DNA from: an uncultured Candidatus Binatia bacterium
GTDB lineage: Bacteria; Desulfobacterota; Binatia; UBA9968; JAJDTQ01
Assembly (NCBI GenBank): GCA_965215605.1
Contig: OZ244070.1
Location: 800,001 to 864,000 of the forward strand
DNA: 64,000 nucleotides
Direction of reading: 5' to 3'
A program made the translations under genes and the position numbers. Under the pieces are notes generated by a model. It saw only the letters and a list, made by a program, of their open reading frames with translations. It did not search any database and had not been told where the DNA came from. Positions 24,093 to 54,134 of this stretch are shown here, piece after piece; position 1 is the stretch's first letter; every line of letters begins with the position of its first letter.

Positions 24093-27000
24093 TCACCAGT
24101 TGAGGGCGACGTTGAAGCGGAGGATATGTTCGGGTTTGGTGTGAGGCGCCTTTCTTCGGGTGGCCTTGAGGCCGAGTTGGAGATCGTGGGCGTTGTTGCG
24201 GGCGAGGGGGTTGAAGCGCCATCCCAGGGTGTAGTCGCGGGCGCCGGCGGCGAAGCCGAAGCCGACATGGGGGCTGGCGGCGAAGCGGCGGTCGAGGACC
24301 GGGAAGCCGTAGGCGGCCTCGGCCAGCCAGCGGCTCTCGGCTGTACCGCCCGCGCCGCCGCGGGTGTCCAGCGGGTCGGGAGCGAACAGGGCGTCGATGC
24401 CGTCTTTGGCCTGTCCGCCCCAGTCCTGACGAAGAGTCAGGGAGGGGCCGAGAGTGGTTGCCGGGTCGGGGTTGTAGGCCAGGGAGGCGGCAAAGCCCCG
24501 GTCCTTCAGATCGTCGGACCGGTGGGCCAGCAGGGTGCGGCCCTCGACATCGAGGCGGAGGCCCAGGGCGGGGTCGCTCCAGGCAATGCCGCCGCCGAGT
24601 TCGATGCCGGAGCCGGTCTCGGCATCGCCGCCGTCATGGCGCGCGCCCACTTCGAGCCTGGGCGTCAGAAGGCCGTTTTGGTCCAGGGCGATCTTCCAGC
24701 TTCCCTCCAGACCGAGCCTGAGCCGGGTCACATCGGAGTCCGAGGCCGCGAGGTCCCGGGTCTTCTCCGAAGAGGTGCGCGCCCAGAGCGCGTCCGACTC
24801 AAGCGCCAGCGCCGGCCCGGAGCGTTGCTTCTGCGGGGACCACAGGTCCCCACGGAGCCCCAACGCCGCCATGGTCCAGGAAACGTCCGACTTGAGCACG
24901 CCGCCAACCTCCGGCTTGAGCGTCACCGCGCCGGCGCCGTAGCCTGCCGCGCCCCAGAGCTTCAGCCGCTCGGTGGCCTGGAAAGAGGCGTAGGGTATGG
25001 CCGCGGTCAGCGACGCGTCGAGGCTGCCGTCGCCCTCGCGCACGGCGCCTTCGCACAGAACCTTCCTGGCATCGTCGCTCATGTGGTCCGCGCCGGCTCC
25101 GGCGCAGGGTTCGGGGGCCGTATCCGTATCCGCATAGGCGCCCTCCCCCTCGCTGTGGGTGAGGGCCAGGCCCGCCATCCATCGGTTCCGGGCGTAGTCC
25201 GCCCCGAGCATGCCGGTGGTGGCGTCGCCGTCAAGGGAGAAGGTACCCTCCCTGCCGTCGAAGTGGGCCTGCGCGGCCCGGCCCCAGAAGGCCAGGCTGC
25301 CGCCCTTGGCGTCCTTGCCGCCGGTGGCGGTGAAGCGGCTCTGGAGCATGAGTTCCCGCAAGCTCAGGGCTCTCCATGTTGAAGCGGTCCCTGGCTCGGC
25401 GCCGCCACCCGTAAAGCCCGTGGCCCGGGCTCCGGGCGCCGCGTGGTCATGGGCCGCGGTCTGCCATCCGGACCCGGTTCCCTGGGAAGCGGTGCTGCCG
25501 TCCGGGAGCGCCTGTCCGGCCAGGGCGCCCTGCACGCCCGCCTCCCGCGGCGCCCTCATCCGGCTCTCGATGCCGTCCAGCGCCTGCTGCGCCACCGTGC
25601 GGCCGAACCGACTCAGCCACGCCTTGGGCATCGGGTCGTTATTGACGATGGTGCCCACCGCAACCCCGTCGCCGATCATCGCGCCCCCCGTCGGCCGCGA
25701 CAGCGCCACCTCGAAGGTCTCCGGGTCCTCGTCGTGATTGTCGTTGTAGACGTAGACCCACATCCGCTTCTCGGTCTGGCCCGGATGGAAGGTGAGCGCA
25801 ATGCCGTCCGGCCACCACCAGAACCAGTCCTCGCCCTGCCGGGCGGAGACCGGGCTCGCCTCGCGCGCCGTGAAGGTCACCTTCACCGTCCGCTGCACGG
25901 CCCGGTCGAGCCGCACCGTGAAATACATCAGCCCGACATCCTCATTCGCGGTCTCGTCGCCCACCGAGAAGGTCGGAGCCGTCGCCGCCGCATCGTCGTC
26001 GGTCACCTTCACCGAGGCCGCATTGTCCGGCGCCGCCGCCACCGTGTAGCGCAGTCCCTTGTCGCCGTCCCCGGCAAGGGTGGCGGTCACCGACCCGTGG
26101 GGCTCGTCCGCCGTGTCGTTCACCGTCGGCACCGTAAAGGTGGCCTCGGTCTCGCCCTTGGGGATGGTCGCCGTGGCGGACCCTTCATGCTCGGCTGCCA
26201 CGAAGTCGCTGCCGTCGGCCTCCGAGACCGTGAGGTTGACCGTCAGGTCCGCGCCGGGGGCCCGGCTCGCCGTCAGGGTGAAGGCGGCGTCCGCGCCCTC
26301 CGCCACGGTCCCGGTCTTCGCCGCGATGGCGATCTCCGGCGGCGGCTCCAGGATGGCGAAGCCGGCCGCGCCCGAGGCCGCCGCCCCGCCGCCGAGGCCG
26401 GTGGCGACCGGCGTGCCTAGCTTCACCGTCACCGTCTCCTTCTCGCCCTCGGCCACGCTGTCCGCCACCGTCGCCAGCACCAGCGTCGCCGCTGTCGCCG
26501 ACTTGCGCCCCGCGGCGCCGGCGAAGGTCACCGCCGGCGGGTTCTTGGGATCGGTTCCCGCGAGGTTGGCATAAGTCACGCCCGCGGGCGCCGTCTCCGG
26601 CGCGGCCAGCGCGTAGTCGGTCCCGAGCGTCGCCGTGCCGGCGAAGGCCAGCGGCACCGCGAGGCTCTCGCCCTCCACCAGCGCGCGTCCGAGCGTCAGC
26701 GTCAGCGTCTTCGAGCCCGACGCCTCGGGCAGGTCGCCCGCCGGCGCTGTCAGCACCACTCCTGTGGCATCGTCGTCCGCCACGGCCACGCTTGCGCTCT
26801 TGCCCTGGTCGTCCACCGTATAGCCGGCGCCGTCCGGCACCGTCGCCACCACAGCGCCTGCCGGCTCGTCGGTCTCGTCGGCCAGCGTCGCCACCGTGAA
26901 GGCCGTCTCGGCCTGCCCGGCCGGGATCGTCACCATGCGCTCGCCCAGCGCCGAGGCGTCGGCAATGGCGCCGGTCTGCGCGACCGCCACCGTCACCGCG

Positions 27001-30000
27001 AGCTCTTCCGCCGGCGCCGGATCGGCCTTGAGCGTGAAGCCCGCCGCCGTGCCTTCCGTCACCCCCGCACCGGCGGTTACGGTGATCGCGGGAACCGCCT
27101 GTTGCGCCTCTGCCTGTACCTCCGCCTGCGCCGGCTCCTTCTCCAGGCATTCCAGCGCCGGCGCCACGGGCACCCAGCGCTGAAGGCCGCGATCCGCCTG
27201 CGCCTCTGCCTCGGCGATGGTCATCGGGTTGTTGCTCCAGGCGTTGCTCTCCCCGAAGGCGGCAAGCACCCGGCTCCAGCGCTCGACATGGCCCGGCGAG
27301 GTCCGCCAGGTCTCGCCCGCAGCCTTCCGGGCGTCGGCAAGCAGGGCGTCGGAGACGCAGGAAGGCGCCTGGCTGTCCGTACTCTGCGCGCTGGCGCTCA
27401 AGGCATCGCTGCCCGGTCCCACCGCCAGGGTTGCCGTGCCGGCGAGGCTGTCCAATTGCTGCGTGTCGCCGTTCTTGTCGACATATTCCGGCGTCACCGT
27501 GACCGTCAGTGTCATCGGCACCGAGGCGCCGTGGTCGATGGTGGTCGTGGTGCCTGTCACGCCGGGCAAGTCACCGGCGGAAGCATTCAGCGAGTCGCCG
27601 CTCTCGGCGCTCCACGACACGTCATAGGAGGTAGCATGCTCCACCGCGTCCCAGGTGACACTGGCGCTGACATCGTCCACCGCCGTCACCTGCAGGTTGG
27701 TCACCGGATCGGTGGGCGCAGGGGCGGCCTCCGCGGGTGCGGAGCGGCCGGTGCGGAGTTCCTCGGTGATGAGGGGACAATCGCGACCCGGGGCGCTGTA
27801 GGGGGCAAAGACGGTGCCGGCAACGGCGTGCGCGCGGATCGTCCCGATGTCCGTGCTGCGCAGGCCGCCGCCCGAGGCCGTGTGGGTGATGTTGGCACAA
27901 CCCTTTTCGAAGGTCGCATATTGCTGCGTGCTGATGACCCAGATCTGGCGATAGCACGCCCAGGACGCGTCCGGGTTCGACGTGTTAACGTCAAACAAAG
28001 AGCTGTGCCCCCCATTGAAGCAGACCCGGTCGGCCGGGCGGTCCTCGAAGGTCACCGTCAGCGATGCCTGCGGCGTACCCCCCGAGGTCAGGGACAGGCC
28101 GAACTTGCTGATGTCGCTCGATGTTGCCGTCACCGTCACCGTTTCGCCGGTCGCCGGGCGGTTCGACAGACGCAATTGGTAACGGAGCGGGTAAATTGGC
28201 GTCATGTCATTCTGGAAGTACCTGAACCCCCGCGTCGCCTTGACGGTGTTCGGGCGCTGTTTGGCAGCGTAGTCATTGATGTTCATTACCGCCAGATCCC
28301 ACGCCTCCAGCTCGGGCGCGTCGTCCACCGCCACCGAAACCCAGCCCAGTCCCTGGTTCGAGTAGCCGCCGCCGTTGGCCGCGTGGGTCAGCGACAGCGT
28401 GCGGTTGAGATGGAGGGACGTCTGGTCCACGCCGGTCACCGTTACCGGCTGCGGATTCATGTAGTTCGATGCCGTGAATGTGAGTGTTGTTGTGCTTGCG
28501 GTCGCGGCCCCGGTGTATCTGCCAGTCGTGCCGATGGTGACGGTGGTATCGCCACCGGAAGGCGCGGTGGGAAGCCGCACGCAATAGGTCGCCATGCCGC
28601 CGTTTTCGAGAACGCGAACACTGTTTACGCTGAGGTTGTTGCTCTGGGCAGGGCATGCCGCCGGCGCGGCCTCGTCGTCCTCCAGCGTCAGGGTCGCCGC
28701 GTCGTTCATCGAATGCGCCGCCACGCCGCTCACCGTGGTGTCCAACAGGCCGAGCGAGGACAGCGTCGCGGTGATCGTCTCGTCGATCGCATCCCCGTCG
28801 TCGCGGCTCGCCACCGGGGTCAGCGTCACCGTCGCCGTCTGCACCGTGTTCGTGTCGTGGCCGGTGAAGACCACCCGCGGGTTGGCCGTCAATGCGTTCG
28901 CCAGCGTCACCCCGCTGTGCATGCTCGCCGCCGCGGCCGAGACCGTGAAGTCGTGATTGGCGGTGCTGCCGCCGTCCACGCTCCCCGGCAGCCGCGCCCC
29001 AGTCGTCGTCGCAAGAGCGATCGGCACGCCGATGGTCTCTCCGCCATAAAGCCGGCGGGACAGCGAAACCGTGAGGGTCGCCGTGTCCGAGGCGTCGCCC
29101 TCGGTCATGGTCATATCCGTACTCGTGAGCGAGACCGTGGTGTCCTCGTCGTCCTGGATGAGGATCTCGTCCCAGGGGTGATCAGTGGATACCGCGTAGC
29201 TGCCGCTGGTGGCCGTGCATTCCGTCAATTCCGGCGGCGCTACCTGGACACGGACGGTGCTGTCCGGGTCGTCGGCGGCGGTGTCGGTCCAGTTGACCGT
29301 GTAGGTGCCTGATCCGTTGCTGGTTCCGCTGGCCAACAGCGTCACCGTCTTGAGACCCTTGTCGACCGCCGCGACCCGGTTGCCGCCTTCCTCGGTCACC
29401 CACACGCACACCGTCAGATTGTTCGGCAGCGGCTCGTCGGCGCTCAGGGGGAATGCAACGCTGCCCGTGCTCTCCTCGTGGGGCTGCTTGCTGTCGACGC
29501 GGCGCACGCCCTCCTGGTCGGGCAGCGACACCCCGATCCTCACCGGTGGATCGTTGATCGTCATCGTGAAGGAAAGGGTGTTCGCCGGCGTCGACGAGTC
29601 GGTCAGCGTCACCGTGAACGTCTCGCCCGAATCCGAGTGGGTATCGATGCTCGCCCTGAGGTCGATTCGGTAGCTGTTGTCGTCCGCATCGTGGCCGGGG
29701 CCCTCATCGTCGCACACGTCGTATGTGTCGACCGCGAAACCAAACTGGTCTGAAGTGCGGCAATTGAGAGTGGTTAACGTCGCGTGGCCGGTGCCGGTGC
29801 CGGTGGTCGTCAGCGCATGGTTGACCGGAGCAACCCAACTCGACGGGATATTGCTGACAGTCACAGCGGTCCCAACACGACCCTCGATCAGCGTCGATGG
29901 GGAGATTGTCGGTGTCGTCTGCGCGGCGGCCGGGGCGGCAAGGCCGAACAGCAGCGGCAGGCAGAGCAGGGCCGGCAGCAGGCCGCGCCGCGGATTGCGG

Positions 30001-30456
30001 GCGGCGGGACGGGCGCCCGCCGCGGCGCGGGCGGGAGAGGGATCGAAGCTGTCAGGGGAAGAAGCGGGCCGGCGGGTGTCGGAACGCCCGCTGGCGGATG
30101 CGGAAGATTCAGGCCGGGAGGCGGAGCGCCTTAGGCGGCGCCACCATGAAGACGCAGGAAGCGCGATCCGGCGATCCGGCGATCCGGCGATCCGGCGATC
30201 CGGCGATCCGGCGATCCGGCGATCCGGCGATCCGGCGATCCGGCGATCCGGCGATCCGGCGATCCGGCGATCCGGCGATCCGGCGATCCGGCGATCCGGC
30301 GATCCGGCGATCCGGCGATCCGGCGATCCGGCGATTATGGGTTGACTCAGGCCTTGTCAAGCCCTGCGCCAAACTATTTTCCGTGCGCCCCGCTATCCCC
30401 CCATGCCTCCTGCCCAACGCCCGGTTCCCATCTCGTCCTTCGTTCACCATGACCAT
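24093..30456 (-). CDS. Large autotransporter-like surface protein/adhesin (Calx-beta, FN3-like, C-terminal beta-barrel); 5' end frameshifted within an 8-bp repeat
   Basis: The frame is open from 30356 to 24093. A signal-peptide-like RRGLLPALLCLPLLLFGLAAPAAA|Q lies at ~29920-29995. Multiple Calx-beta-like units end in DDD/DDE. PMPKAWLSRFGRTVA linker, and a barrel ending in an aromatic residue (..NVALNW). The plausible start (ATG 30456 after GGAGG) is in a different frame. Confidence 0.8.
30163..30335. repeat. Simple sequence repeat (GCGATCCG)x21 plus GCGAT
   Basis: Perfect 8-bp tandem repeat counted from the sequence; no spacers; no stop codon in any frame. Confidence 0.97.
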
Positions 30457-30636
30457 CGCATCGCCTCCGAAAACTGTCGCCCGACCCGCTGGCCCGCGCT
30501 GCCCACACCTCTGCCGGGCATTGCCTGTCCCGTTTGGCGTACATTACGCCGAGTCCGGTGGAAATTCAATACGCGCGTGTTTGCTTCCTAGCGACGACGG
30601 CAAGCCGGTATCGGCCGCTACGGGACCGCCGGCCCG

Positions 30637-34314: not shown

Positions 34315-35525
34315 CGGGCGGAGAGAGGACGCGAACGGACCCGGAGACCCGCCGGAACCGCCAGAGGCAGTTGCTGCTGTTCTCGGGGCTGGCCGGGGCC
34401 GGACTGATCGTGTTCGCGGTGTGGCTCTCGGCCGGCAAGGGCGGCGGGCCGGCGGCGCCGGGCGGGATCGAGGCGAACCTCGTGGCGGACGATACGGCGG
34501 AGGCGAGTTGGGTGCGCCGCTCCGAGGCGCGGATCGGGGAGTTGGAAATGCGGCTGCGGGAGATGGAGACGCAGCGGCGGCGGACCGAGGAAGAGAACGC
34601 GCGGCTTCGCGAGAGCCTCGTGCGCGACGCCGAGGACGGGCGGATGGTGATCGACCGGCAGGCGGCGGCGATCGAGGAACTGCGGAGCCGTCTCGACGCT
34701 CCGGGGTTCACGGGGGCGGTTCGGGCAACGGGTCCGGGTCCCCGCGGCCCGCGTTCGGGTTCGGCGGCCCCGGCGGTTCCGGCGGCGTCCATGATCCAGG
34801 AGTTCGCGAGCGCGGCGCCTCCGGGGGCGCTGCCGGGTCCGCGGCGGCTCAAGTCCTGGCTTCCGGCCGGGTCCTACGCGGACGCCCTGGTGTTGGCGGG
34901 GGTGGACGCTTCGGCGGGAGTGAGCTCGCAGGGAGACCCGCGCCCGGTGCTGCTGAGGCTCACCAGCGCGGCCCGGAGCGCGGCCGAAGACGGCGAAGCG
35001 CTGGAAGTGGACCTCGAGGGCTGCACGCTCACGGGGGCGGCGCACGGGGATCTCTCCTCGGAGAAGGTCTATGTGCGGCTCAGGACCCTGACCTGCGCGG
35101 GACCGGAGCGGGAGACGGTGATCGAGACCGAGGTGGCGGGGTTCGTGGCGGGGAGCGGCAAGGCCGGGGTGCGGGGCCCGGTGGTGAGCCGGGAGGGGGC
35201 GCTGGTGGAGAAGGCGTTCCTTGCTGGGCTGGTTTCGGGCGCGGGGGAATCGGCGTCCAGCCTGCTCCAGGCCCGGGCCGTGAATGCGGGCGGGGACGGC
35301 GGCGGCGCGAGTCTGGCGGACGTGGGCCGGGCCGGTCTCGGGGCGGGCGCGGGCTCGGCCGGGCGCAGGGTTGCGGACTACCTCATCCGCCGGGCCGAAC
35401 AGTACCAGCCGGTGATCCAGTTGCAGACGGGCACGCGGGTGACGGTGGTGTTCATAGAAGGCGCCCGGATCGACGGGCGCGGGGATGTCCGGACCGGAAA
35501 GCCCAAGAGAAAGGCCGGAGAATGA
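34311..35525 (+). CDS. traB: F-type T4SS TraB (VirB10-like)
   Basis: TM plus coiled coil; LPAGS, GDLSSEKVYVR, GKAGVRGPVVSREG and YLIRRAEQYQPVI motifs. Confidence 0.9.
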   Translation: MTGGERTRTDPETRRNRQRQLLLFSGLAGAGLIVFAVWLSAGKGGGPAAPGGIEANLVADDTAEASWVRRSEARIGELEMRLREMETQRRRTEEENARLRESLVRDAEDGRMVIDRQAAAIEELRSRLDAPGFTGAVRATGPGPRGPRSGSAAPAVPAASMIQEFASAAPPGALPGPRRLKSWLPAGSYADALVLAGVDASAGVSSQGDPRPVLLRLTSAARSAAEDGEALEVDLEGCTLTGAAHGDLSSEKVYVRLRTLTCAGPERETVIETEVAGFVAGSGKAGVRGPVVSREGALVEKAFLAGLVSGAGESASSLLQARAVNAGGDGGGASLADVGRAGLGAGAGSAGRRVADYLIRRAEQYQPVIQLQTGTRVTVVFIEGARIDGRGDVRTGKPKRKAGE

Positions 35526-36115
35526 GAAGGCAGACGACAGACACTTGGCGAACCGCCGGAGGGCTTCTGGCGGCGGCGCTGTTCCTGGGAGGCTGCTCGG
35601 CGACGCATGTAGGCGACGCCTGGCAATGCCCGGTGGCGCAGGGCGCGGCGTGCGCGGACGTGGCGGAGGCCGATCCGGCGGTGGCGGCTTCGGACAAGGC
35701 CCGGGACTCCGCGGTTCCCGAACCGCTGGCGCCGCTCAAGCCGCCGGCGCCCGCGGCAGCAACGGAGTCCGCGGTAGCCGGCGATGGCCGCGGGTCCTGG
35801 CCCGCGTGCGCGGGGAACTGCGATCCTCTCGCGTGGCTGGCCGCATGGTTCGATTCCCTCAAGGGGCCGGCGGACCCCGGGTTTCCCATGGAGCCGGCAT
35901 CCGCGCCGCCGCCTGGGGAGCCGCCGGCGCCGGAGAATCCGGGCAGCGAAGATCCGGACGCGTCCGCCGAGGGGCCGCGGACGGAGGAGACGCTTCGGAC
36001 GGAGGAGAGGATCGGGCGCATCTGGATCGCTCCGTTCGTGGACGGCGGCGGGGTGTACCGGGAGGGCCATTGGGTGCGGACGGTGCTGGAGCCGGCGCGC
36101 TGGAGGGTCCGGTGA
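35522..36115 (+). CDS. traV: F-type T4SS lipoprotein TraV
   Basis: Lipobox LGGC, C..G..C, and C-terminal R..E...RIWIAPFVD..G.Y. Confidence 0.85.
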   Translation: MRRQTTDTWRTAGGLLAAALFLGGCSATHVGDAWQCPVAQGAACADVAEADPAVAASDKARDSAVPEPLAPLKPPAPAAATESAVAGDGRGSWPACAGNCDPLAWLAAWFDSLKGPADPGFPMEPASAPPPGEPPAPENPGSEDPDASAEGPRTEETLRTEERIGRIWIAPFVDGGGVYREGHWVRTVLEPARWRVR

Positions 36116-38628
36116 TCGAGCGGCTGAAGGACCTTCTCGGGGGGCCGGACGCGCTGGCGCCCTGGAGGCTGCCGGCGCTTCCGGCCTCGCTCACGGACCT
36201 GCTGCCCTGGCGGGCGTGGGACGAGGCGGGCGAGTTCTACGTCAACGCCGGAAGCTGCGGCTTCCTGCTGGAGCTTCCGCCGTTCGTGGGGATCGACGAC
36301 GGGGCGCTGGAGGCGCTGGCCGGGACCCTGGCCGACGCCGCGCCCGAGCGCTCGCTGGTTCAGTTCCTGCACTGGACGAGTCCGCGCTACGGCGCGGCGG
36401 TCCGGAGCTGGGCCGAGCCGCGGCAGCGGACGGGCGGAGTGCAGGCCGGAATGGCCGCGCGGCGCCGCGCCCTCTTCACCCATGCGGGTTGGCGTCCGCT
36501 CCACGCGGGCGGGCCTCCGTTCACGCTCAAGGACTGCCGGGTGTTCCTGGCCGCGTGCGTGGCGGGACAGCCGGGGCCCGTGGCCGAGACCGCGCTCGGG
36601 GGCTTCCGCCGGGCGCTGGAGGGGACCCTGGCGTCGGCCGGGGCCGAGGCGCGGCGGGTGGACCCGGACACCCTCCTGTCGCTGGCCGCCGAGCTCACGG
36701 CGCCGGACCCCGAGGGGGTGTTCGACGGGGACCTCGACCGGCCCCGGCGGCGCTGGTCGCCGCGGGACCCGCTGCACCTCCAGTGCGCGGCGCCCGGGCG
36801 CGCCCTGTCGGTGGCGCCCGCGGGGCTGGTGTTCCACCACCCGGACGGAACCGACGTGGCGGTGCGCGTTCTCTCGGCGCGGGCTTTTCCGGAGGTGTGG
36901 CCGGGCTGGCGCGGCAACGCGTTGATCGGCGACTTCCACCGGGACTTCCTTCAGCCGGGCGCCCCGGTGCTGACCGCGCTCACGGTGATGATGGGCGACG
37001 CCGCGGACGGCGAGCGCGCCTTCCTGAAATCCGCCCGCGCCACGCAGCAGGCGAGCACCGGGATCGCCCGCTACCTGCCGGGACTGCCCGAGAAGGCGCA
37101 GGACTGGCGCTTCGTCACCGAGCGGCTCAAGGAGGGCGAGCGGCTGGTGAAGGCCTGCTACACGGTGGCGGTCTACGCGCCCCTGGGCGCCATCGACGAG
37201 GCCGAGCAGGCGGTGCGGGCCATCTATCACGGCCAGGGCTGGCGCCTGGGAGCCGAGCGCTACGCGCATCTGCCGGCGTGGCTCGCGTGCCTGCCCATGG
37301 TCCCGGCCGGCGGGCTCGACTCGGACCTGGCCCGGATGGGACGGATGAAGACGCTCCTCACGTCGTCGGCCGTGAACCTGGCGCCGGTGCACGGCGAGTG
37401 GCGCGGCCAGGAGGGCTCGCCCGACGCCCCGCCCGCGCTGTTGCTCATCGGCAGGCGGGGCCAGCCCGCGGTCTGGTCGCCCTTCGCCAACGAGGCCGGG
37501 AACTACAACGTGGCGGTGACCGGGAAGTCGGGGTCGGGGAAGTCGGTGCTGATGCAGGAACTCGTGTCAGGGATCGCGGGGGCGGGCGGCGAGGCCGTGG
37601 TGATCGACGACGGGCGCTCCTTCCAGCACACGGCGGAGGCCCTGGGCGGGGCGTTCATTGCCTTCGGCAAGGACCCGGCGCGGCTGAACCCCTTCGCCAT
37701 GATCGACGCGGAGGCCGCGGCCCGGGACAGCGACTACCGCGAGGAGTGCTTCGCCATGCTGGCGTCGGTGATCGGGCGCATGTGCCGGCGGCGCGGGCGC
37801 ATCGACGACATCGAGGCCGCGCTCATCGACGAGGCCATAGCGGCCGCCTGGGAGGAGGCCGGGAACGGCGCCGACCTGGGAACCGTTCAGCGGAGGCTTG
37901 AGCAGGCGGGCGACCGGCGGGCGTCGGACATGGCCCTGGCCCTGGGGCCGTGGCGGCCGGGGGGCGCTTTCGGACGGCTCTTCGAGGGGGCGGACACCCC
38001 TGCCCTGGACGCCGCCCTCACCGTGTTCGAGTTGGCCGAGCTGAAGGGGCGGGGCGACCTCCAGGGCGTGGTGCTGATGCTGGTGATCTTCCTCGCCACC
38101 CAGCGCATGTACCACGGCCCGCGCACGCGCCCCAAGGCCATCGTCATCGACGAGGCGTGGGACCTCCTTTCCGGAGAGGACAGCAAGGCCTTCCTTGAGG
38201 GCGCGGCCCGGCGGGCGCGGAAGTACCGCGGCGCGCTGGTGACCGGCACCCAGAGCGTCAACGACTACTACGCCAACCCCGCGGCCCGCGCCGCCTGGGA
38301 GAACTCGGACTGGGTGATCTTCCTGGCCCAGAAGGAAGAGTCGGTGGAGCTTCTGAAGCAGGAGAAGCGCATCCACTGCGATCCGGGCATGGAGCGGGCG
38401 CTCAAGAGCCTGGCCACCGTGGACGGACGGCACGCCGAGCTGCTGCTGCACGGCCCGGACGGCTGGCGGGTGGCGCGGCTGGCGCTGGACCGCTGGTCCA
38501 CGGCGCTCTACTCCTCGCGCGGCCCGGCGTTCGCCGCGGTGGAGCGGCTCAAGGAGGAGGAAGGCCTGGCAACCGCGCAGGCCATCGACCGCATTGCCGC
38601 CGGCGGCGGCGCGGACGACGCGCCGTGA
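36112..38628 (+). CDS. traC: F-type T4SS ATPase TraC (VirB4-like)
   Basis: NYNVAVTGKSGSGKS, IDDGRS, IDEAW and RRARKY motifs. Confidence 0.93.
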   Translation: MIERLKDLLGGPDALAPWRLPALPASLTDLLPWRAWDEAGEFYVNAGSCGFLLELPPFVGIDDGALEALAGTLADAAPERSLVQFLHWTSPRYGAAVRSWAEPRQRTGGVQAGMAARRRALFTHAGWRPLHAGGPPFTLKDCRVFLAACVAGQPGPVAETALGGFRRALEGTLASAGAEARRVDPDTLLSLAAELTAPDPEGVFDGDLDRPRRRWSPRDPLHLQCAAPGRALSVAPAGLVFHHPDGTDVAVRVLSARAFPEVWPGWRGNALIGDFHRDFLQPGAPVLTALTVMMGDAADGERAFLKSARATQQASTGIARYLPGLPEKAQDWRFVTERLKEGERLVKACYTVAVYAPLGAIDEAEQAVRAIYHGQGWRLGAERYAHLPAWLACLPMVPAGGLDSDLARMGRMKTLLTSSAVNLAPVHGEWRGQEGSPDAPPALLLIGRRGQPAVWSPFANEAGNYNVAVTGKSGSGKSVLMQELVSGIAGAGGEAVVIDDGRSFQHTAEALGGAFIAFGKDPARLNPFAMIDAEAAARDSDYREECFAMLASVIGRMCRRRGRIDDIEAALIDEAIAAAWEEAGNGADLGTVQRRLEQAGDRRASDMALALGPWRPGGAFGRLFEGADTPALDAALTVFELAELKGRGDLQGVVLMLVIFLATQRMYHGPRTRPKAIVIDEAWDLLSGEDSKAFLEGAARRARKYRGALVTGTQSVNDYYANPAARAAWENSDWVIFLAQKEESVELLKQEKRIHCDPGMERALKSLATVDGRHAELLLHGPDGWRVARLALDRWSTALYSSRGPAFAAVERLKEEEGLATAQAIDRIAAGGGADDAP

Positions 38629-38654
38629 CGGCCTGCCTGGGATTTGGAGAACGA

Positions 38655-39425
38655 ATGAGCGGCGGCGAGGACAAAGGAGACGCCATGGACGCACGCAAGA
38701 GCAGACGGCCGCGAGCCGCAGCCCGCAAGGATCGCTCCGGAGAACGTCCCCTCGACTGGCCGGGAGATCCGGAATTGCTGACCGCGGAAGCCGTTGACTT
38801 CGAGGCCCTGGCCTGCGTGCTGGCCAACACCTGCCGCCGCGGCGGAAGGCTCAGGCGGTTCCACTCCCTGGCGGCACACGCGGTGCTCTTGAGCGAGGCG
38901 ATCGAGAACCTGGGGGAGTCCGGCGCCGGGGACGGCCGGATCGTGGCGCTGCACGCGCTTTTGGCCGACGCCAGCGTCGCGTGGCTGGGCGCCGGGGCTG
39001 TTGCATCTCAACGCGGTGCGGAGCGTTTCAAGCGGCTGCGGGAGACCGTGGACCGGGCCGTGCGCGAAGCGGCCGGACTCCGGGGAGAGCCCTCCCCGGA
39101 ACAGTCGGAACTGCTTCGTTTCGTGGCCCGCATGGGCGAGGCCGCGGAGAATCGGGATCTTCCGGGAGCGGGCGACGGCGCGGCTCCGGCGATCGCCTTC
39201 CCGCCGCTCCCCAGCCGGATACGGGCCGTGGAGCCCGGCCGGGCCGCCAGGCTCTGGCTGGACCGCCTGCGGAATTTGAGAGGAGGTTCGGAGTTGGAAC
39301 GGAGCGTCACGGCGCCCTCGCCCGGGGAGTCCCGGAACGGGAGTGACTCCGCTTCACGGGATGAACCGCAGCCAACGGGCGTCCACGGCCTGCGAACGGC
39401 TGGAGGTTCGGGTGATGAGGCATGA
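38655..39425 (+). CDS. YfdR/YfbR-like HD-fold protein with degenerate HD motif
   Basis: LACVLANTCR.GG...HSLAAHA..LHALLADAS aligns by eye to IAHALSNICRFAG..YSVAQHS..ALLHDAAEAY, but with HD changed to AD. Start uncertain (38625, 38655 or 38685). Confidence 0.6.
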   Translation: MSGGEDKGDAMDARKSRRPRAAARKDRSGERPLDWPGDPELLTAEAVDFEALACVLANTCRRGGRLRRFHSLAAHAVLLSEAIENLGESGAGDGRIVALHALLADASVAWLGAGAVASQRGAERFKRLRETVDRAVREAAGLRGEPSPEQSELLRFVARMGEAAENRDLPGAGDGAAPAIAFPPLPSRIRAVEPGRAARLWLDRLRNLRGGSELERSVTAPSPGESRNGSDSASRDEPQPTGVHGLRTAGGSGDEA

Positions 39426-39837
39426 GTTGCGGCGGAACGGGGACGGAGGCCCGGTCATGAGCGCATACGCGACGCTTGGGGCCGCGATGCTGCTCGCGAC
39501 AGGCGTGGCCGCGTCAGTGTCGGCCGTGACGGCGCGTGTCGTCCTGGAGCGGGTTCCGCTCACAGGGAGCGTGCGGCTTGCCGAGCTTGCAGCCGACTAT
39601 ATGGCGAGGGCCGCGCGGGAACACGGAGACCGGACAGATGCGGCCGAGGCCGCGCGCAGCTGGGCCAGACGGCTTGACGAGGCGCTGGTCCGGACGGCGG
39701 CGCGCCATCGCGTGGTGCTGCTTCCCGCTCGGGCGGTCGCCGCGGGCGCGGAGGATTTCACCGCCGAGGTGAAGGCTGCGATGCGAGAGGCCGCGCGGAA
39801 AGACGATCTTCAGGCCGGCCAGGAGGCGAAACGATGA
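39415..39837 (+). CDS. trbI: F-type conjugal transfer protein TrbI
   Basis: TM, then ..VVLLPARAVAAGAEDFT; position before peptidase and traW. Confidence 0.7.
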   Translation: MRHELRRNGDGGPVMSAYATLGAAMLLATGVAASVSAVTARVVLERVPLTGSVRLAELAADYMARAAREHGDRTDAAEAARSWARRLDEALVRTAARHRVVLLPARAVAAGAEDFTAEVKAAMREAARKDDLQAGQEAKR

Positions 39838-40382
39838 GAGCGGGCGATGTCCTGGAAGGCCGGCCGCGACGGGGCAACAGGCTTGTCTTCTGGGCCGCGG
39901 CGGCGGCCCTGGCGTGGCTTGCCCTGACCTCGCGGGTCTACGTCAATGCGAGCTGGTCGGACGGGGCCTGGGGCTATGTCGTGCTGCCCCTCCTGGGCGC
40001 GCCCGGCAGAGGGGAAGTGGTCGTCTTCGACCCTCCGGAGGCGGTGGGTTCGCCGGTCCCGTATCTCAAGACCGTGCGCGGCCTGCCGGGAGACCATGTC
40101 GAAGTGGACGACGATAGCCGCGTCCGGGTGAATGGCAAGGCCGTGGGCATCGCCAAGACCCATGCCCGTGACGGGCGTCCGCTGAAGATGGCCCGGCCGG
40201 GGGTGATTCCGCCCGGCCGCTACTACGTACACGCCGATCACGTGGACAGCCACGACAGCCGCTACGCGGAGATCGGGCTCGTGCCGCGGGAGCGCATTCG
40301 CGGGCGCGCCGTGGCGTTGCCGGACATTCCGTGGCTGGGGCTGGAAGGCCCTCTGGCCAAACCCGGGGAGACGCGGCCGTGA
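39834..40382 (+). CDS. S26-family conjugative pilin-processing peptidase (TrhF-like)
   Basis: NAS.S, LK.V.G.PGD and SHDSRY..IG.V motifs. Confidence 0.85.
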   Translation: MRAGDVLEGRPRRGNRLVFWAAAAALAWLALTSRVYVNASWSDGAWGYVVLPLLGAPGRGEVVVFDPPEAVGSPVPYLKTVRGLPGDHVEVDDDSRVRVNGKAVGIAKTHARDGRPLKMARPGVIPPGRYYVHADHVDSHDSRYAEIGLVPRERIRGRAVALPDIPWLGLEGPLAKPGETRP

Positions 40383-41050
40383 CGGGGCGGCGTTCGCACG
40401 CCCGTTGCCTGCTCGCCGCGGCCGGCTGCGCGCTGACGCTCGCGGCGCAACCCGGTGCGGCAAGGGATCTCGGGGTCCGCGGCGCTGTGTGGCCGGTAGC
40501 CGAGCCCGACCTCCTCGCGGAGATCGGGGACCGGCTTGGAGAGCTGGAGGCGTCCGGTGAAATGGCCCGCATGCGCGTCGAGGCCGTGGAGCGGGCGCGG
40601 CGGCGGATCGAGGCCCCGGGACGCGTCGCAGGCATCGCGGCGGCGCGCGTTCACCGCACCCGGCTCTTCGATCCTTCCATGACTCTGGACCGGGACATCC
40701 GGGCGGCGGACGGGACCCTGATCGCGGCCCGCGGCGCGCGGGTCAACCCGCTCGACGCGCGCCCGCTCACGCGCGACCTGCTGTTCATCGACGGGGCGCG
40801 GCCCGTGGAGGTCGCCTGGGCGCTCAGGCATGGACGGCCCGCGAGGATCGTGCTCGTGGGGGGCCGTCCGCTGGAGCTCATGCGCGCCCACGGCCGGCCG
40901 TTCTACTTCGACCAGGGCGGCCGGCTGTCGAGGCGGCTGGGGCTCCGCGCCACCCCGTCGGTGATCGCGGCCGAGGGACCGGTGCTTCGAATCACCGAGG
41001 TGCCGCTCGAAGACGAAACGGACCCGGCAACTGCGGGAGAACGGCCATGA
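40379..41050 (+). CDS. traW: F-type T4SS TraW
   Basis: DLGVRGAVWPVAEPDLL, VNPLD, FIDG and YFDQGG motifs. Confidence 0.9.
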   Translation: MTGRRSHARCLLAAAGCALTLAAQPGAARDLGVRGAVWPVAEPDLLAEIGDRLGELEASGEMARMRVEAVERARRRIEAPGRVAGIAAARVHRTRLFDPSMTLDRDIRAADGTLIAARGARVNPLDARPLTRDLLFIDGARPVEVAWALRHGRPARIVLVGGRPLELMRAHGRPFYFDQGGRLSRRLGLRATPSVIAAEGPVLRITEVPLEDETDPATAGERP

Positions 41051-42048
41051 GGTTCCTGACGGCCATCGGCGCGGCGCTCGTGCTCGCCGGCTTTCTGTCT
41101 GCGGGGACCGCGCACGCGCAGTCGTGCACAGGCCGCTTCGTGAACCCGGTGACGGACGTGTGCTGGGAGTGCCTGTTCCCGATCTCCATCGGGCCGATCC
41201 GCATGGGGAGCGCCGCGGGGGCGCCGGACACGCCCAATCCCGGATCGCCGATCTGCGCCTGCGGCAGCCCGGTCCCCCGCATAGGGCTCTCGCTCGGCGT
41301 GTGGGAGCCGGCGCGGCTCATCGACGCCACCCGCGCGCCCTGGTGCTTCCCCAACCTGGGCGGCATGACCGTGGACCCGGGCCTGCCGGCCGGGCGGGGA
41401 CGCACGGCGTCGTCGGGCGGCGACGGAGCGTCGGGGTCGGTGTGGCACGCCCACTACTACGTCTACCCGCTGCTTTCGTGGATCGGGGCGCTGCTCGACC
41501 TCGGCTGCCTCGAAGGCGGCGGTCCGGACATCGCCTGGGTCTCGGAGCTCGACCCGGCTTGGCGGGACGACGAGCTGTCGTTCCTGATGAACCCGGAGGC
41601 TGCGCTGTTCGCGGACCTCCCGGCCCAGGCGGCCTGCGCCGCGGACTGCGCGGCCGCCTCCGCCGGGCTGCCGCTCGATCCGCTCTTCTGGTGCGCGGGC
41701 TGCCAGGGCGGCATGTATCCCCTGACCGGCAACGTGGCCGCCCACGTGGGCGGGGTCCAGGCGTCTCTTCTCGCGGCCGAGCGGCTCGTGTTCCGCCTGC
41801 ACCGGCTGCTGCTCGCCCAGGGCACCTCCGGTTCGGCGGCGCTCTGCGGGCGATACCCGATGCCGATCATGAAGAAGTCGCAGTACCGCTGGCAGATGAC
41901 GCAGCCGGTGCCGGCCACATCGCCGCTCACGGGCTGCAACCCCACGGGACGGTCCTCCGTGCTGTGGGAGGCGCTCCGGGAGCTTCCGGCGGCTGGCGAG
42001 AATTTCGGGTACCTGCTCTGGCGCAAGCGCAACTGCTGTCTTCTGTGA
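41047..42048 (+). CDS. traU: F-type T4SS TraU
   Basis: CTGRFVNPVTDVCWECLFP, FWCAGCQG and WRKRNCC motifs. Confidence 0.93.
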   Translation: MRFLTAIGAALVLAGFLSAGTAHAQSCTGRFVNPVTDVCWECLFPISIGPIRMGSAAGAPDTPNPGSPICACGSPVPRIGLSLGVWEPARLIDATRAPWCFPNLGGMTVDPGLPAGRGRTASSGGDGASGSVWHAHYYVYPLLSWIGALLDLGCLEGGGPDIAWVSELDPAWRDDELSFLMNPEAALFADLPAQAACAADCAAASAGLPLDPLFWCAGCQGGMYPLTGNVAAHVGGVQASLLAAERLVFRLHRLLLAQGTSGSAALCGRYPMPIMKKSQYRWQMTQPVPATSPLTGCNPTGRSSVLWEALRELPAAGENFGYLLWRKRNCCLL

Positions 42049-42058
42049 GGACGCGGGC

Positions 42059-42772
42059 ATGAACGACAAACGATTTTCCATCGCCGCCGCCGCAGTGGTC
42101 TGCGCGTTCCTTTTGGCGGGCGGGTCCGGCTCGGGACGCGCGCAGGGAACGCCCAAGGACCTGGCGCGGGAGATGGTGGATCAGGTGCTGCGCGGGGCCG
42201 GGCCGCACCGCCGCCGCAACCTGGAAAGCTGGTCGCGTTCGGTGATCGAGCGCGCGCTGGAACGCACGGGGCGGAAGGCCTCCGGCGGGTCCGCTCCCCT
42301 CCCGGCCGAGGGTCATGCGGGCCGCTTGCCGGCGAGCCTTTCCCGCCGCGCCGGAGGTCCCGAGGTGATCGTCTTCATGAGCCTTTCAGCGCCCGCGGCG
42401 AGCTGGCGGCAGTGGAGCCGGGAGGCCGCGCGCACCGGCGCGCCGCTGGTGCTGCGCGGGGTTGGTCCGGACGGGCTTCAGGCCACGGTGAAGCGCATCG
42501 GCGCGCGCCTGGACCGCGGCGGCGCTGCCGCCATCGATCCGCGCCTGTTCCGTCTGTTCCGCGTCTCGGTGATTCCCGCGGTCGTGGTGGTTCCCGGCGG
42601 GGTCCCGCCGTGCGAGAGCCGGGGCTGCCTTTCGGACGCGGTCCCGCCCCACGACCGGATCGCCGGGAACATCGGCCTCGGGGCCGCGCTCGAAGCCATC
42701 GTTGCCGAGGGCGGACCCGGCCGCGCGGCCGCCGCCCGCCATCTGGCGAAGCTGAGAGGGAGTCTTCCATGA
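42059..42772 (+). CDS. trbC: F-type pilus assembly protein TrbC
   Basis: VFMSLS.P, LVLRG, IDPRLF..F....PA.V and D...GN motifs. Confidence 0.88.
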   Translation: MNDKRFSIAAAAVVCAFLLAGGSGSGRAQGTPKDLAREMVDQVLRGAGPHRRRNLESWSRSVIERALERTGRKASGGSAPLPAEGHAGRLPASLSRRAGGPEVIVFMSLSAPAASWRQWSREAARTGAPLVLRGVGPDGLQATVKRIGARLDRGGAAAIDPRLFRLFRVSVIPAVVVVPGGVPPCESRGCLSDAVPPHDRIAGNIGLGAALEAIVAEGGPGRAAAARHLAKLRGSLP

Positions 42773-43845
42773 AACGCCCCTGGGGAATGAAGGCAACCAT
42801 CGCAAGCATTCTTCTGGCGGGGCAACTCGCCGCTGTCGGCGCCGGCGCGGAAGACCCCAAGGCCGCGGCGCGCGCCGTGGGACAGGCGGGAGGGGCCCGG
42901 GCGGGCGCCGTTGCGAGGGACCCGGGCTCCGCCGCGCGCGTGCCGGGCTACGCGGGCACGAATCCGCCCGAAAGGGGCATCGGCGCCGGCGAGCTGGAAA
43001 CGGCCGCCGCGCGGGCGCTGGCCGATCCCTCCGATCCCGGCGGCAGGGCCGGGCGGGCGGTGATCGAGGGCTCGGCCCTGCGTCCGGCGGCGAAGGTCGA
43101 GCCGGACGATCCGATGGTGCGGCGCGGGGACGGAATCGAGGCCGGCGCGCAATCGCCGGCATGGCGGGCGGACGGGCTCGCTTCGGGCTCGGTCGCGGCT
43201 TGCGGGGCCGGGGTGGAGGCCGCCGGGTCGGGCGGGGGATGCGGGTCCGTGTCGTGGTGCGTGGGGGCGGATTGCCAGACCGCGGAGCCGCAGGCCAACA
43301 CGGGGTTCGTGGAGTCGACGGCGCGGCTCAACATGGCGCTTGAGCTGGGCGGCGAGGAGTTCGACCGCGAGAACCTCCGGTTCTTCAACGGCGATCGGCG
43401 CTCGTGCCGCATCCGCTGGGGAGGGCTCGCCAACTGCTGCAAGGACTCGGGCGTGCTGGTGGGCCTCGGGAACTGCACGGAGGCGGAGCGGCTCCTGGCC
43501 GAGGAGCGCCACGCCGGCAACACGCACTACCTGGGGAAGCGTTGCACAAGGCGCGTCTTCGGGGTGTGCACGCGCCGGGAGCGTTCCTGGTGCGTGTTCG
43601 GCTCGAAGCTCGGACGGATCCTCCAGCAAGCGGCCCGGAGCCAGCTCGGGATCGGCTGGGGAAACTGCCGGGGCTTCACGGTCGCGGAGATGGAGCGCAT
43701 CGACTTCGAGGCGGTGGACCTCTCGGAGTTCGCCGAGGACCTTGTGGACGGGTCGCGCGAGCCGTCCATCGACCTCCCGGAAGCGGACCGGGCGGGCGCG
43801 GTGATGCGTGCGCGCATCGAGGACTTCTACGGGAGGACCAAGTGA
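42769..43845 (+). CDS. traN: Mating-pair stabilisation protein TraN (short form, 358 aa)
   Basis: Signal peptide; Cys-rich C-terminus NCCK..C..HYLG..C..C...WCVFGSKLGRILQQ..R.QL..CRGFT..E...IDF..VDLSEF. Confidence 0.85.
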   Translation: MKRPWGMKATIASILLAGQLAAVGAGAEDPKAAARAVGQAGGARAGAVARDPGSAARVPGYAGTNPPERGIGAGELETAAARALADPSDPGGRAGRAVIEGSALRPAAKVEPDDPMVRRGDGIEAGAQSPAWRADGLASGSVAACGAGVEAAGSGGGCGSVSWCVGADCQTAEPQANTGFVESTARLNMALELGGEEFDRENLRFFNGDRRSCRIRWGGLANCCKDSGVLVGLGNCTEAERLLAEERHAGNTHYLGKRCTRRVFGVCTRRERSWCVFGSKLGRILQQAARSQLGIGWGNCRGFTVAEMERIDFEAVDLSEFAEDLVDGSREPSIDLPEADRAGAVMRARIEDFYGRTK

Positions 43846-44678
43846 CGGGCGCGGCCGTGAACGGGGCATTGGCGGGGGCCCTCGCCTGCGTCCTGGGGGC
43901 GGGGGCGGCGTTGCCCGCGGACGCGCGGGAATGGCGGCCGTGGTGCGGTCCGCGGGAAGGCGTGGAAGAAGGCCCATCCCGGTCCCTCGGCTGGCATTTC
44001 TACTGCGACCGGGACAGGGAGGAGCCGGAGGACGGCGCTTCGATGCCCGAGTCCCCGCCCGTCCGGCCCGGGAGCGCGATGGAGCGGGTTCTCGAAATGC
44101 GCCGGAACCTGGAGGAGGCCCGGGCCAGGGCCGTCCTCGATCCGGGCGCGGAGAACGTTTCGGCCTACCTCCGGCTTCAACAGGAAACCCTTCAGCGGGC
44201 CGCGTCCTTCTCGGACGCGTTCCGCCGCACGGTGTGGGGAAACCCGGAACTCGACTACACGCTCAGGCGTCCGGTGGGCGCGCTCGCCAAGAGGCTCTGG
44301 TCGGACGAACGGCGCGCCGAGCGCGCCGCGGCGCTGGCCCGGCTGGGCGAGCGCTACGGTCTCATCTACCTCGGCAGTGCGCAATGTCCGGGATGCCGCG
44401 TATTCGGCCCGCTGCTGCGCGCCTTCGCGCTCCGCTACGGGCTGGACGTGCTTGCGGTGTCGCTTACCGGCGAGCCGCTCGAAGGCTGGCCCGAGGCGTC
44501 GCCGGACCATGGGCGCGCGGCGCGGCTGGGGCTCGGGACCCGGGTCGTCCCGGCCGTGTTCCTCTACGACACGCAAAGGTCGAAGGCGCTGGCGGTGTCG
44601 TTCGGGGTGGTGGCCGAGGACCAGCTCGCCGAGCGCATCTTCGCGCTCACCGCGCGGGAGGTGGGAAGTGACTATTAG
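43842..44678 (+). CDS. traF: F-type TraF (thioredoxin-like fold)
   Basis: GWHFYCD, A...P..EN..Y, PELDY, CPGC and VS..G motifs. Confidence 0.88.
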   Translation: MTGAAVNGALAGALACVLGAGAALPADAREWRPWCGPREGVEEGPSRSLGWHFYCDRDREEPEDGASMPESPPVRPGSAMERVLEMRRNLEEARARAVLDPGAENVSAYLRLQQETLQRAASFSDAFRRTVWGNPELDYTLRRPVGALAKRLWSDERRAERAAALARLGERYGLIYLGSAQCPGCRVFGPLLRAFALRYGLDVLAVSLTGEPLEGWPEASPDHGRAARLGLGTRVVPAVFLYDTQRSKALAVSFGVVAEDQLAERIFALTAREVGSDY

Positions 44679-46080: not shown

Positions 46081-46113
46081 AGCCGGGCGCAGAGGCGTTC
46101 AGGAAAGGCGGCC

Positions 46114-48975: not shown

Positions 48976-49014
48976 GCGTCCGGCGGTCCCTCGCGGCGGA
49001 AGGAGGATACGGTC

Positions 49015-50988: not shown

Positions 50989-50989
50989 G

Positions 50990-53884: not shown

Positions 53885-54134
53885 CGGTACGGAAGCCGGT
53901 GAGAAAGAGGCGGGTGCGGACCGCTGGCTGCGCGGGATGGTTGCGAGAGGGCGCGGGGACATGTGCGGCGGCGGGAGACAGTGCCGCTCTTCGGTCTGGC
54001 TGACGGGCAGCGTCGAGCCCCGGGAAATACGCGGAGTTTGAAGTTGTCCCTGTATCATGGTTGTTAGCCATCTATACAGAGTTTCGATGAAACATCACCT
54101 TGAGTTGTTTCGAGACTGTGCTATTTTGATGGTT

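Follow-up and report, generated by a model that had tools for sequence, protein, structure and literature searches.

Textbook accounts of contingency loci center on host-adapted pathogens, Neisseria, Haemophilus and Campylobacter among them. The opa genes of Neisseria carry CTCTT repeats in the region coding for the signal peptide, lic and lgtC-type genes of Haemophilus influenzae are switched by tetranucleotides, and the autotransporter genes autA and autB of Neisseria meningitidis contain AAGC repeats. The locus described here lies on the minus strand of a 64,000-nucleotide stretch of DNA (hereafter the window; contig OZ244070.1 of assembly GCA_965215605.1, positions 800,001 to 864,000) from an uncultured Candidatus Binatia bacterium, where a perfect octamer simple sequence repeat (SSR) stands ahead of a gene for a giant, autotransporter-like protein whose reading frame lacks a start codon of its own. 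A first-pass annotation of the window had proposed a phase-variable adhesin gene caught in the OFF state, and our analysis favors the same view: with a probability of roughly 0.6, we consider the array to be a slipped-strand translational ON/OFF switch of which the assembled allele would be OFF. This reading is supported by repeat numbers that vary, by start-less genes that are intact, by alleles in which an upstream start codon is fused to the gene body, and by the homology of that upstream ATG to the start codon of a repeat-less paralogue (PAR1).

Like opa and lic/lgtC, the locus has a perfect SSR with a unit that is not a multiple of 3 between a start codon and the body of a surface gene, and there are several paralogous loci per genome, each with its own repeat number and most of them out of frame. 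It differs from both in its 8-bp unit repeated up to 45 times, in a 5' cassette that is shared as a whole by bacteria labelled as different phyla, in its invariant TTGACA and TATAAT boxes, which lie within the coding stretch, and in its hosts, which appear to be uncultured symbionts and not pathogens. Unlike in opa, the SSR also precedes the signal peptide and forms part of a long N-terminal extension. Like autA/autB, the gene encodes a protein with a predicted outer-membrane barrel at its C-terminus and would be switched in frame by an SSR; the two systems are set apart by the length of unit and array, by where the repeat lies with respect to the signal peptide, and by the predicted size of the barrel (approximately 16 strands here).

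Another group of relevant systems are the hmw adhesin genes, though these seem to use their repeats in a different way. The genes hmw1A and hmw2A of H. influenzae have a 7-bp SSR, (ATCTTTC)n, in the 5' untranslated region (UTR), which is reported to act via a long RNase III hairpin (PMC12721329), and in biogroup aegyptius 12 to 15 copies of the octanucleotide GCATCATC are found upstream of hmwA (PMC3309571). The hmw loci and ours share a long array, in which a 7- or 8-bp unit is repeated more than 10 times before a very large secreted adhesin gene, as well as a promoter-like element just upstream of the array; however, the hmw array is untranslated and forms an RNase III hairpin with a G-rich arm that yields graded expression, whereas no such hairpin is predicted here. 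Unlike in hmw, a Shine-Dalgarno (SD) sequence and ATG read into our array, and the window gene has no start codon past it. New relative to the known systems are the octamer, the very long arrays, the site ahead of the signal peptide, the shared cassette and the invariant boxes, and we found no description of this octamer switch cassette in the literature searched.

The coordinates, period and perfection of the array as first annotated were reproduced by Tandem Repeats Finder (TRF), which returns window positions 30163-30335, period 8, 21.6 copies, 100% matches and 0 indels. Three or more consecutive CGGATCGC units are unique to this array in the 4,057,781-bp genome of the window (G000), with all 19 overlapping matches located there, and TRF found no other perfect short-period array of comparable length genome-wide, one 12-bp repeat excepted. 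The array is thus far beyond chance. The frame of the large gene (main frame) is free of stops from a TGA at 30359-30357 to its own stop at 24095-24093, and it indeed has no ATG, GTG or TTG ahead of the signal peptide: the first in-frame candidate, a GTG at 29864, lies 3' of the signal-peptide-like stretch RNPRRGLLPALLCLPLLFGLAAPAAA/Q at 29999-29922. Also as first described, the ATG at 30456 (7 nt after GGAGG) and a TTG at 30360 enter the array in a second frame, closed by TGA 30111-30109, while the remaining third frame would terminate at TAA 30133-30131. Since 30456 minus 29864 is 592, or 3 x 197 + 1, start and body would be fused at 22 units (+1) or 19 units (-2), exactly as had been calculated before. 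The earlier statement that the main frame crosses the repeat without a stop is true, yet this passage is uninformative because the CGGATCGC array encodes an identical stop-free octapeptide, RIAGSPDR, in any of the three forward frames. The features of the locus are compiled in Table 1.

Table 1. Features of the octamer-headed locus in window coordinates, listed in the direction of the gene.
Feature	Position	Strand	Remarks
Candidate promoter TTGAAT (30569-30564), N17, TAATGT (30546-30541)	30541..30569	minus	~85 nt before the ATG
Shine-Dalgarno sequence GGAGG	30464..30468	minus	7 nt 5' of ATG 30456
Proposed genuine start codon ATG	30454..30456	minus	second ATG at 30450
Putative pre-repeat coding stretch MVMVNEGRDG...QGLTRPESTHN	30336..30453	minus	open into the array in all loci
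TTGACA (30360-30355) and CATAAT (30339-30334), 15-nt spacer	30334..30360	minus	inside the coding stretch, abutting the array
SSR (CGGATCGC)x21 plus partial unit	30163..30335	minus	TRF; proposed slippage site
TGA closing the frame of ATG 30456 at n = 21	30109..30111	minus	predicted OFF product of 115 aa
Post-repeat leader LPASSWWRRLRRSASRPESS...	30000..30162	minus	main frame, no ATG/GTG/TTG
Predicted Sec-type signal peptide RNPRR-GLLPALLCLPLLFGLAAP-AAA/Q	29922..29999	minus	by inspection of the translation
Predicted passenger of ~1,570 aa with Calx-beta, LapA-like and fn3-like modules	25200..29921	minus	Pfam
Predicted C-terminal outer-membrane beta-barrel domain of 368 aa, plus stop	24093..25199	minus	Pfam, AF2, fold matches

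The best guide to the genuine start codon is PAR1, a repeat-less paralogue at approximately G000:C1:1071973-1077084. Its 5' region aligns with the pre-array region of the window, including SD, ATG and first codons, and its ATG leads directly into an extension of approximately 55 amino acids (aa), a signal peptide and a 1,600-aa protein. This homology suggests that ATG 30456 is the start codon of the family and that the array lies within the 5' coding part, and a long extension before the signal peptide would seem normal for these proteins. A GGAG-type SD precedes the homologous ATG in nearly all cassette loci, with all sequence classes represented. Among 13 homologous class-A loci, the distance from ATG to TTGACA is 96, 93, 87 or 72 nt and thus divisible by 3 throughout, while variable sites in the pre-repeat peptide are spread over the three codon positions as 20/22/21, indicating that the frame of this stretch is kept and its sequence is not; this codon-position test, which shows no periodicity, neither supports nor excludes translation. 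Further upstream, TTGNNT-N17-TANNGT is kept at the same position in an alignment of divergent class-A loci while the spacer sequence varies, and the weak but positionally conserved TTGAAT/TAATGT pair of the window is our candidate for the true promoter. A consensus promoter scan flagged neither promoter candidate on the strand of the gene, TTGAAT/TAATGT being below threshold.

Translation from upstream is also suggested by the sequence on the other side of the array. The leader motif W(R/L)RR..AS(R/P)PE(S/P)S and the signal peptide are in one frame across approximately 20 loci with lengths differing by 15 to 40 codons, which argues that this stretch is translated by ribosomes entering from upstream of the motif. 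The complete cassette is ordered as TTGNNT-N17-TANNGT, approximately 70 to 85 nt, a strong SD with ATG, 25 to 55 codons, (C)TTGACA, 15 to 27 nt, and TATAAT, followed by the abutting array, the leader with its W(R/L)RR motif and the signal peptide.

We propose that transcription most likely begins upstream of the SD and that ribosomes would start at ATG 30456, translate approximately 42 codons and then read the array as (RIAGSPDR)n. Whenever n is 1 mod 3 (19, 22, 25 and so on), reading would continue into leader, signal peptide, passenger and barrel; with the 21 units of the assembled allele it would stop at 30109 after 115 aa, leaving the big frame without its own start and the gene OFF. Slippage during replication, adding or removing 8-bp units, would then switch the surface protein stochastically and reversibly, a scheme that presumes the slippage rate, the transcript and the export of an extended precursor. 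Predicted folding of the 491-nt 5' region is poorer than for any of 100 shuffled versions (z = +4.1), and no long stable hairpin is predicted, which fits a translated linker.

Slippage should be reflected in variable repeat numbers, and this expectation is borne out by unit counts taken from assembled sequences with one value per locus. The closest relative of the window gene is its orthologue in a sister species (G021), which encodes an 84% identical protein and has 32 units instead of 21 between the same flanks, and counts across all loci range from 5 to 45. Relatives of the protein occur in 26 of 41 same-order genomes searched (G000 included), but of 28 genomes from the genus, the unit pattern is confined to G000 and G021, the latter with three arrays of 45, 32 and 11 units that are each located ahead of a paralogue. 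A scan for the junction pattern recovered 67 stretches from a set of one genome per prokaryote species and 5 from a metagenome collection, giving a final table of 73 sequences (the window and 72 fetched stretches) of which 38 were discarded as short chance-like matches (n<5 or no box). The full cassette is present at 35 loci, and 3 of the 5 metagenome stretches bear it. According to their record titles, these loci belong to Alphaproteobacteria (7 loci on one chromosome), Thalassobaculaceae (5), Paracoccaceae, Rhodobacter and Rhodospirillales as well as Arenicellales, Gammaproteobacteria, Nitrospira, Gemmatimonadota and "Candidatus Binatia" (metagenome-assembled genomes, of which some short contigs are perhaps mis-binned). 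Several of the bin names resemble what we take to be sponge-microbiome series.

The array unit itself is not always the same. Octapeptides at the homologous position of database proteins imply other octamers (CGGGTCGC from VAGSPGRR and AGCCGCCG from SRRAAEPP; P0088, P0092, P0102 and P0040), and the arrays of loci L089 and L099 also use other octamer units. Logan contigs, which were matched with the flank alone, contain many variant leader copies but none that spans the array, and they revealed neither ends of transcripts nor a distribution of lengths; a loose contig end among them has a 5-bp repeat, (GCTCG)n, where the window has its octamers. A 38-nt contig of pure repeat came from an RNA library, which says nothing on expression.

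The window gene is not alone in lacking a start codon. At 15 loci (the window and 14 others) the first 100 nt past the array contain no ATG, GTG or TTG, and inspection of the translations reveals none ahead of the signal peptide either. These start-less loci have open frames of up to 2,023 aa, some of them ended by the edge of the fetched stretch, and intact examples occur in at least 5 genomes. Comparison of the window gene with its G021 orthologue gave a ratio of nonsynonymous to synonymous substitution rates (dN/dS) of 0.106/0.209, which is 0.5 overall, with values of 0.16 to 0.32 in the C-terminal thirds. The start-less window gene is under purifying selection, and the long open frames together with dN/dS indicate that start-less genes are not decaying. 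Alternatively, the array could be functionless and unstable, with the start lost by deletion and the gene left as a young pseudogene or a silent donor for recombination, for which one could cite that the start-less leader lacks a stretch of approximately 20 to 25 nt carrying the ATG of its relatives with the other leader type (MSAFAW; the database protein P0079 is orthologue-like and has that start), that several paralogues per genome share 5' and 3' ends in a way favoring recombination, and that one G021 paralogue (G021 b) is frameshifted. We consider this improbable given that approximately 2,000 stop-free codons are a negligible chance outcome at this GC content, that such frames and constraint toward the C-terminus are seen as described above, and that SD, ATG and an open upstream frame are kept in all loci.

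It is more improbable still that the protein is made at any n, either from a non-canonical start or by frameshifting within the array. An AUC does fall into the main frame within 24 nt of the array end whatever the number of units, as each frame meets one in every third unit, and the only other near-cognate codon ahead of the signal peptide is a single AGG. However, AUC initiates very poorly in those bacteria in which it has been tested, the unit contains nothing SD-like beyond GGA, and the conserved SD with ATG and open upstream frame would be left unaccounted for. Ag43 is an autotransporter switched through GATC sites, and each octamer contains a GATC, so that 21 such sites line up behind the -10-like box and might be methylated or protected as in an agn43-type (Dam/OxyR) epigenetic switch. 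We regard this as the least probable of all explanations: the genome has no Dam-family (PF02086) methylase above cut-off (best match 21.4 bits vs. 22, with PF02086 the only family searched), and neither the variable unit number nor the start-less frame would be accounted for.

If the array is a translational switch, alleles in the ON configuration should exist. We scored frame states on the 30 loci with at least 330 nt of sequence 3' of the array and found the upstream ATG fused in frame with the big open reading frame (ORF) at 5 of them (L053 with n = 9, L064 with n = 45, L065, L074, and L106 with n = 13), with L053 and L106 open through to the end of the gene. At 24 loci the upstream ATG is in another frame, and at the last one (L093) the upstream frame stops on a downstream ATG, as it also does at L117, which falls outside the length filter. 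Database proteins show the same range of forms: 7 of the 120 best barrel-domain homologues begin with the upstream peptide and octapeptide repeats (P0040, P0046, P0055, P0088, P0091, P0092 and P0102), as illustrated by the N-terminus of P0055 (MTIFNEGRH..(IAGSPDRR)4..LPASSWWRR), and 21 of the 120, P0046 included, start at the leader motif. At least 25 of the 120 are, by eye, called from inside or past the signal peptide, among them the window product itself (P0002), as would be anticipated for OFF alleles. Six genomes have more than one cassette locus: five of them (with 7, 5, 3, 2 and 2 loci) contain a single fused locus each, the sixth (2 loci) contains none, and two fused loci were never seen together; the loci are related, and the tally was made post hoc.

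At the two loci where the upstream frame stops on the downstream start, L093 (G021 c, n = 11) and L117 (n = 8), the stop overlaps the ATG of the gene itself as ATGA (..GCATGAGT.. and ..TCATGAGC..). Such an overlap is the classic layout of translational coupling and points to a third state of expression for genes with this leader type. The leader type in question is the one with a start of its own: 12 loci have an ATG, GTG or TTG 4 to 57 nt after the array, usually as ATGA (MSAFAW...), and by eye no recognisable SD precedes it.

Several of our observations weigh against an ON/OFF switch of translation. The main weakness is that fused alleles are found at 5 of 30 loci where 10 would be expected by chance, and at 2 of 15 among the start-less loci, so that frame is not visibly selected in consensus assemblies; the frames look random, and the same pattern would be expected if frame were irrelevant. 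An excess of out-of-frame copies is, on the other hand, also typical of multi-copy contingency families, in which most copies are off. Of the two start-less alleles that are fused, one (G021 b, n = 45) is frameshifted approximately 1,050 nt downstream. The upstream peptide lacks a codon-position signature of selection, and in the 12 loci with a start past the array, the array could simply be a 5' leader. The ON product would have approximately 175 aa before the core of the signal peptide, far above the usual length; this had been raised at the outset as a caveat (then approximately 150 aa) and is largely answered by the long extensions typical of the family, but the length as such stays. Finally, the invariant TTGACA and TATAAT resemble promoter elements directly 5' of the array, and if transcription started there, ATG 30456 would be absent from the mRNA.

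Regarding the 45-unit allele, the locus listed as L044 (G021:C1:797800-802300, minus strand) is in frame at the array and shows its frameshift near ...CACTACAAACAGTAACATCGGC..., and a database protein (P0003) has been called from the part behind this frameshift.

The boxes deserve separate attention because they suggest the most serious alternative. Both are invariant in 35 loci with unrelated intervening sequence (CATAAT in the window), and such invariance amid unrelated intervening and flanking sequence speaks for a function at the level of DNA or RNA. Judging by where TATAAT lies, a transcript could begin within the array. An hmw-like rheostat close to the promoter or in the 5' UTR would therefore take the boxes as promoter and the array as a 5' leader that tunes mRNA level or translation, in line with the conservation of the boxes across otherwise unrelated loci, the TATAAT abutting the array, the nearby start codons of the 12 loci mentioned above, the seemingly random frames relative to the upstream ATG, and the precedent of the 7-bp hmw SSR (PMC12721329) and the aegyptius octanucleotide (PMC3309571). 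Yet the spacers between the boxes measure 23 nt at 20 loci, 20 nt at 6, 15 nt at 3, 26 nt at 2, 27 nt at 2, 21 nt at 1 and 17 nt at 1 doubtful locus, and with a spacing of mostly 23 nt and of 16 to 18 nt only at this doubtful locus they do not form a -35/-10 pair for sigma-70. The suggestion in the first-pass annotation that TTGACA-N15-CATAAT could place the repeat in a 5' UTR thus pointed to boxes that are real and invariant, but their spacing of 15 to 27 nt misfits sigma-70.

Moreover, transcripts starting there would lack a downstream start codon at the window gene and 14 other loci, the starts past the array lack an SD while the upstream ATG has a strong one, the array RNA is predicted to form no long hairpin, and PAR1 points to the upstream ATG as start codon. 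No TTGACA-TATAAT spacer is 1 mod 3, a length that would put a TAA into the upstream frame, and the frame from SD and ATG reads the boxes as TTG-ACA and ATA-ATC (or CAT-AAT), open into the array at every locus. Taken together, we consider the rheostat unlikely as a general explanation, though the boxes may serve as an internal promoter in loci with their own ATG. We also considered whether the TTGACA box resembles a sigma-32 or an FNR site and whether the GGA-rich array acts as a CsrA sponge, but by eye no consistent motifs were seen across loci, and these readings were dropped.

Going beyond the slipped-strand switch at this one locus, the distribution of the cassette invites a broader hypothesis that we can put forward only tentatively. 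SD and ATG, an unconstrained spacer with the boxes, the octamer SSR, and leader plus signal peptide might together form a portable switch cassette that has spread among unrelated host-associated bacteria and governs thousands of giant barrel-anchored proteins. It may have three states—in-frame fusion, a stop on the downstream ATG (coupled), and run-through in the third frame that masks this ATG—with typically one in-frame locus per genome, and the boxes would be an internal promoter or another switch signal in DNA or RNA.

The same switch logic that is known from pathogens would thus operate in uncultured bacteria that are probably symbiotic, where it heads the genes of a very large family of giant surface proteins and a conserved switch cassette seems to use several octamers (CGGATCGC, CGGGTCGC and AGCCGCCG) across distant lineages. 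If true, stochastic surface variation would be a general tool of host association beyond the evasion of vertebrate immunity, automatic annotation would miss the starts of many such genes, and unit counts from long reads would report which adhesins a symbiont population has switched on.

The encoded protein ends in ...RFNVALNW and would function as an adhesin. Its passenger matches Calx-beta in Pfam (4.9e-12) as well as LapA (9.4e-5) and fn3 (1.7e-3), the latter two below cut-off. The C-terminal domain scores 25.5 bits against the Pfam Autotransporter family (PF03797; cut-off 26, E 1.4e-5), and a scan of 18 members for PF03797 gave a match in 1, the window fragment. In the ESM Atlas, 28 of 30 named matches have the family set of the first match, PF03797, with a top score of 0.97. 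An AlphaFold2 (AF2) model of the barrel built from 53 sequences reached a predicted local distance difference test (pLDDT) score of 79.7 and has approximately 16 strands and one helix at residues 42-54, while an earlier model on an 18-sequence alignment (pLDDT 48.7) was too poor for use. The top VIA-align matches of the model are the 16-stranded CdiB (Z 16.2, root-mean-square deviation 4.1, 275 residues aligned), FhaC (16.1) and TamA (15.8); AIDA-I matches with Z 11.1 over 194 residues, and generic barrels score similarly. Foldseek against the PDB returned only generic outer-membrane barrels at template modelling (TM) scores of approximately 0.4. A profile search of PDB sequences found only the Calx-beta domains of Na/Ca exchangers, and a single-sequence search of the same sequences found no match. 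The models are thus consistent with a product that is barrel-anchored and autotransporter-like, not proven to be type Va. The barrel domain itself is widespread, with 6,585 representative clusters (50% identity) at E <= 1e-3.

The cassette lies beside a conjugative element, as the first-pass annotation had recognized: genes of F-type conjugation and type IV secretion (TraC, a TraF-like S26 peptidase, TraU, TrbC, TraF and TraH) are encoded at 35485-46080 on the plus strand. The ORFs between this block and the cassette have no Pfam or NCBIfam match, and two long minus-strand ORFs at 46099-50652 and 50693-54058 have none in Pfam. In G021, the upstream neighbors differ from approximately 290 nt before the array.

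Other repeats are found elsewhere in the genome. Ankyrin-length and CRISPR-like (clustered regularly interspaced short palindromic repeats) arrays are often reported in host-associated symbionts, and contig C1 of G000 has many arrays with a 99-bp period (for example 155002-155902, 866617-867929 and 1908617-1909820), a length that fits ankyrin repeats, as well as two CRISPR-like arrays with 61-bp period at approximately 1957032-1960343 and 2317200-2320512. A near-perfect 12-bp array (GGATCGGGGCAG, 11.8 copies) lies outside the window at G000:C1:1396786-1396926 beside a G9 run, with open frames overlapping it. A 6,743-aa paralogue that shares the barrel domain has a G13 tract approximately 35 nt into its open frame or its upstream region (G000:C1:3311211-3311223), and further G12 to G14 tracts lie at C1:433995, 1251730 and 3648790; all of these might be additional slippage switches.

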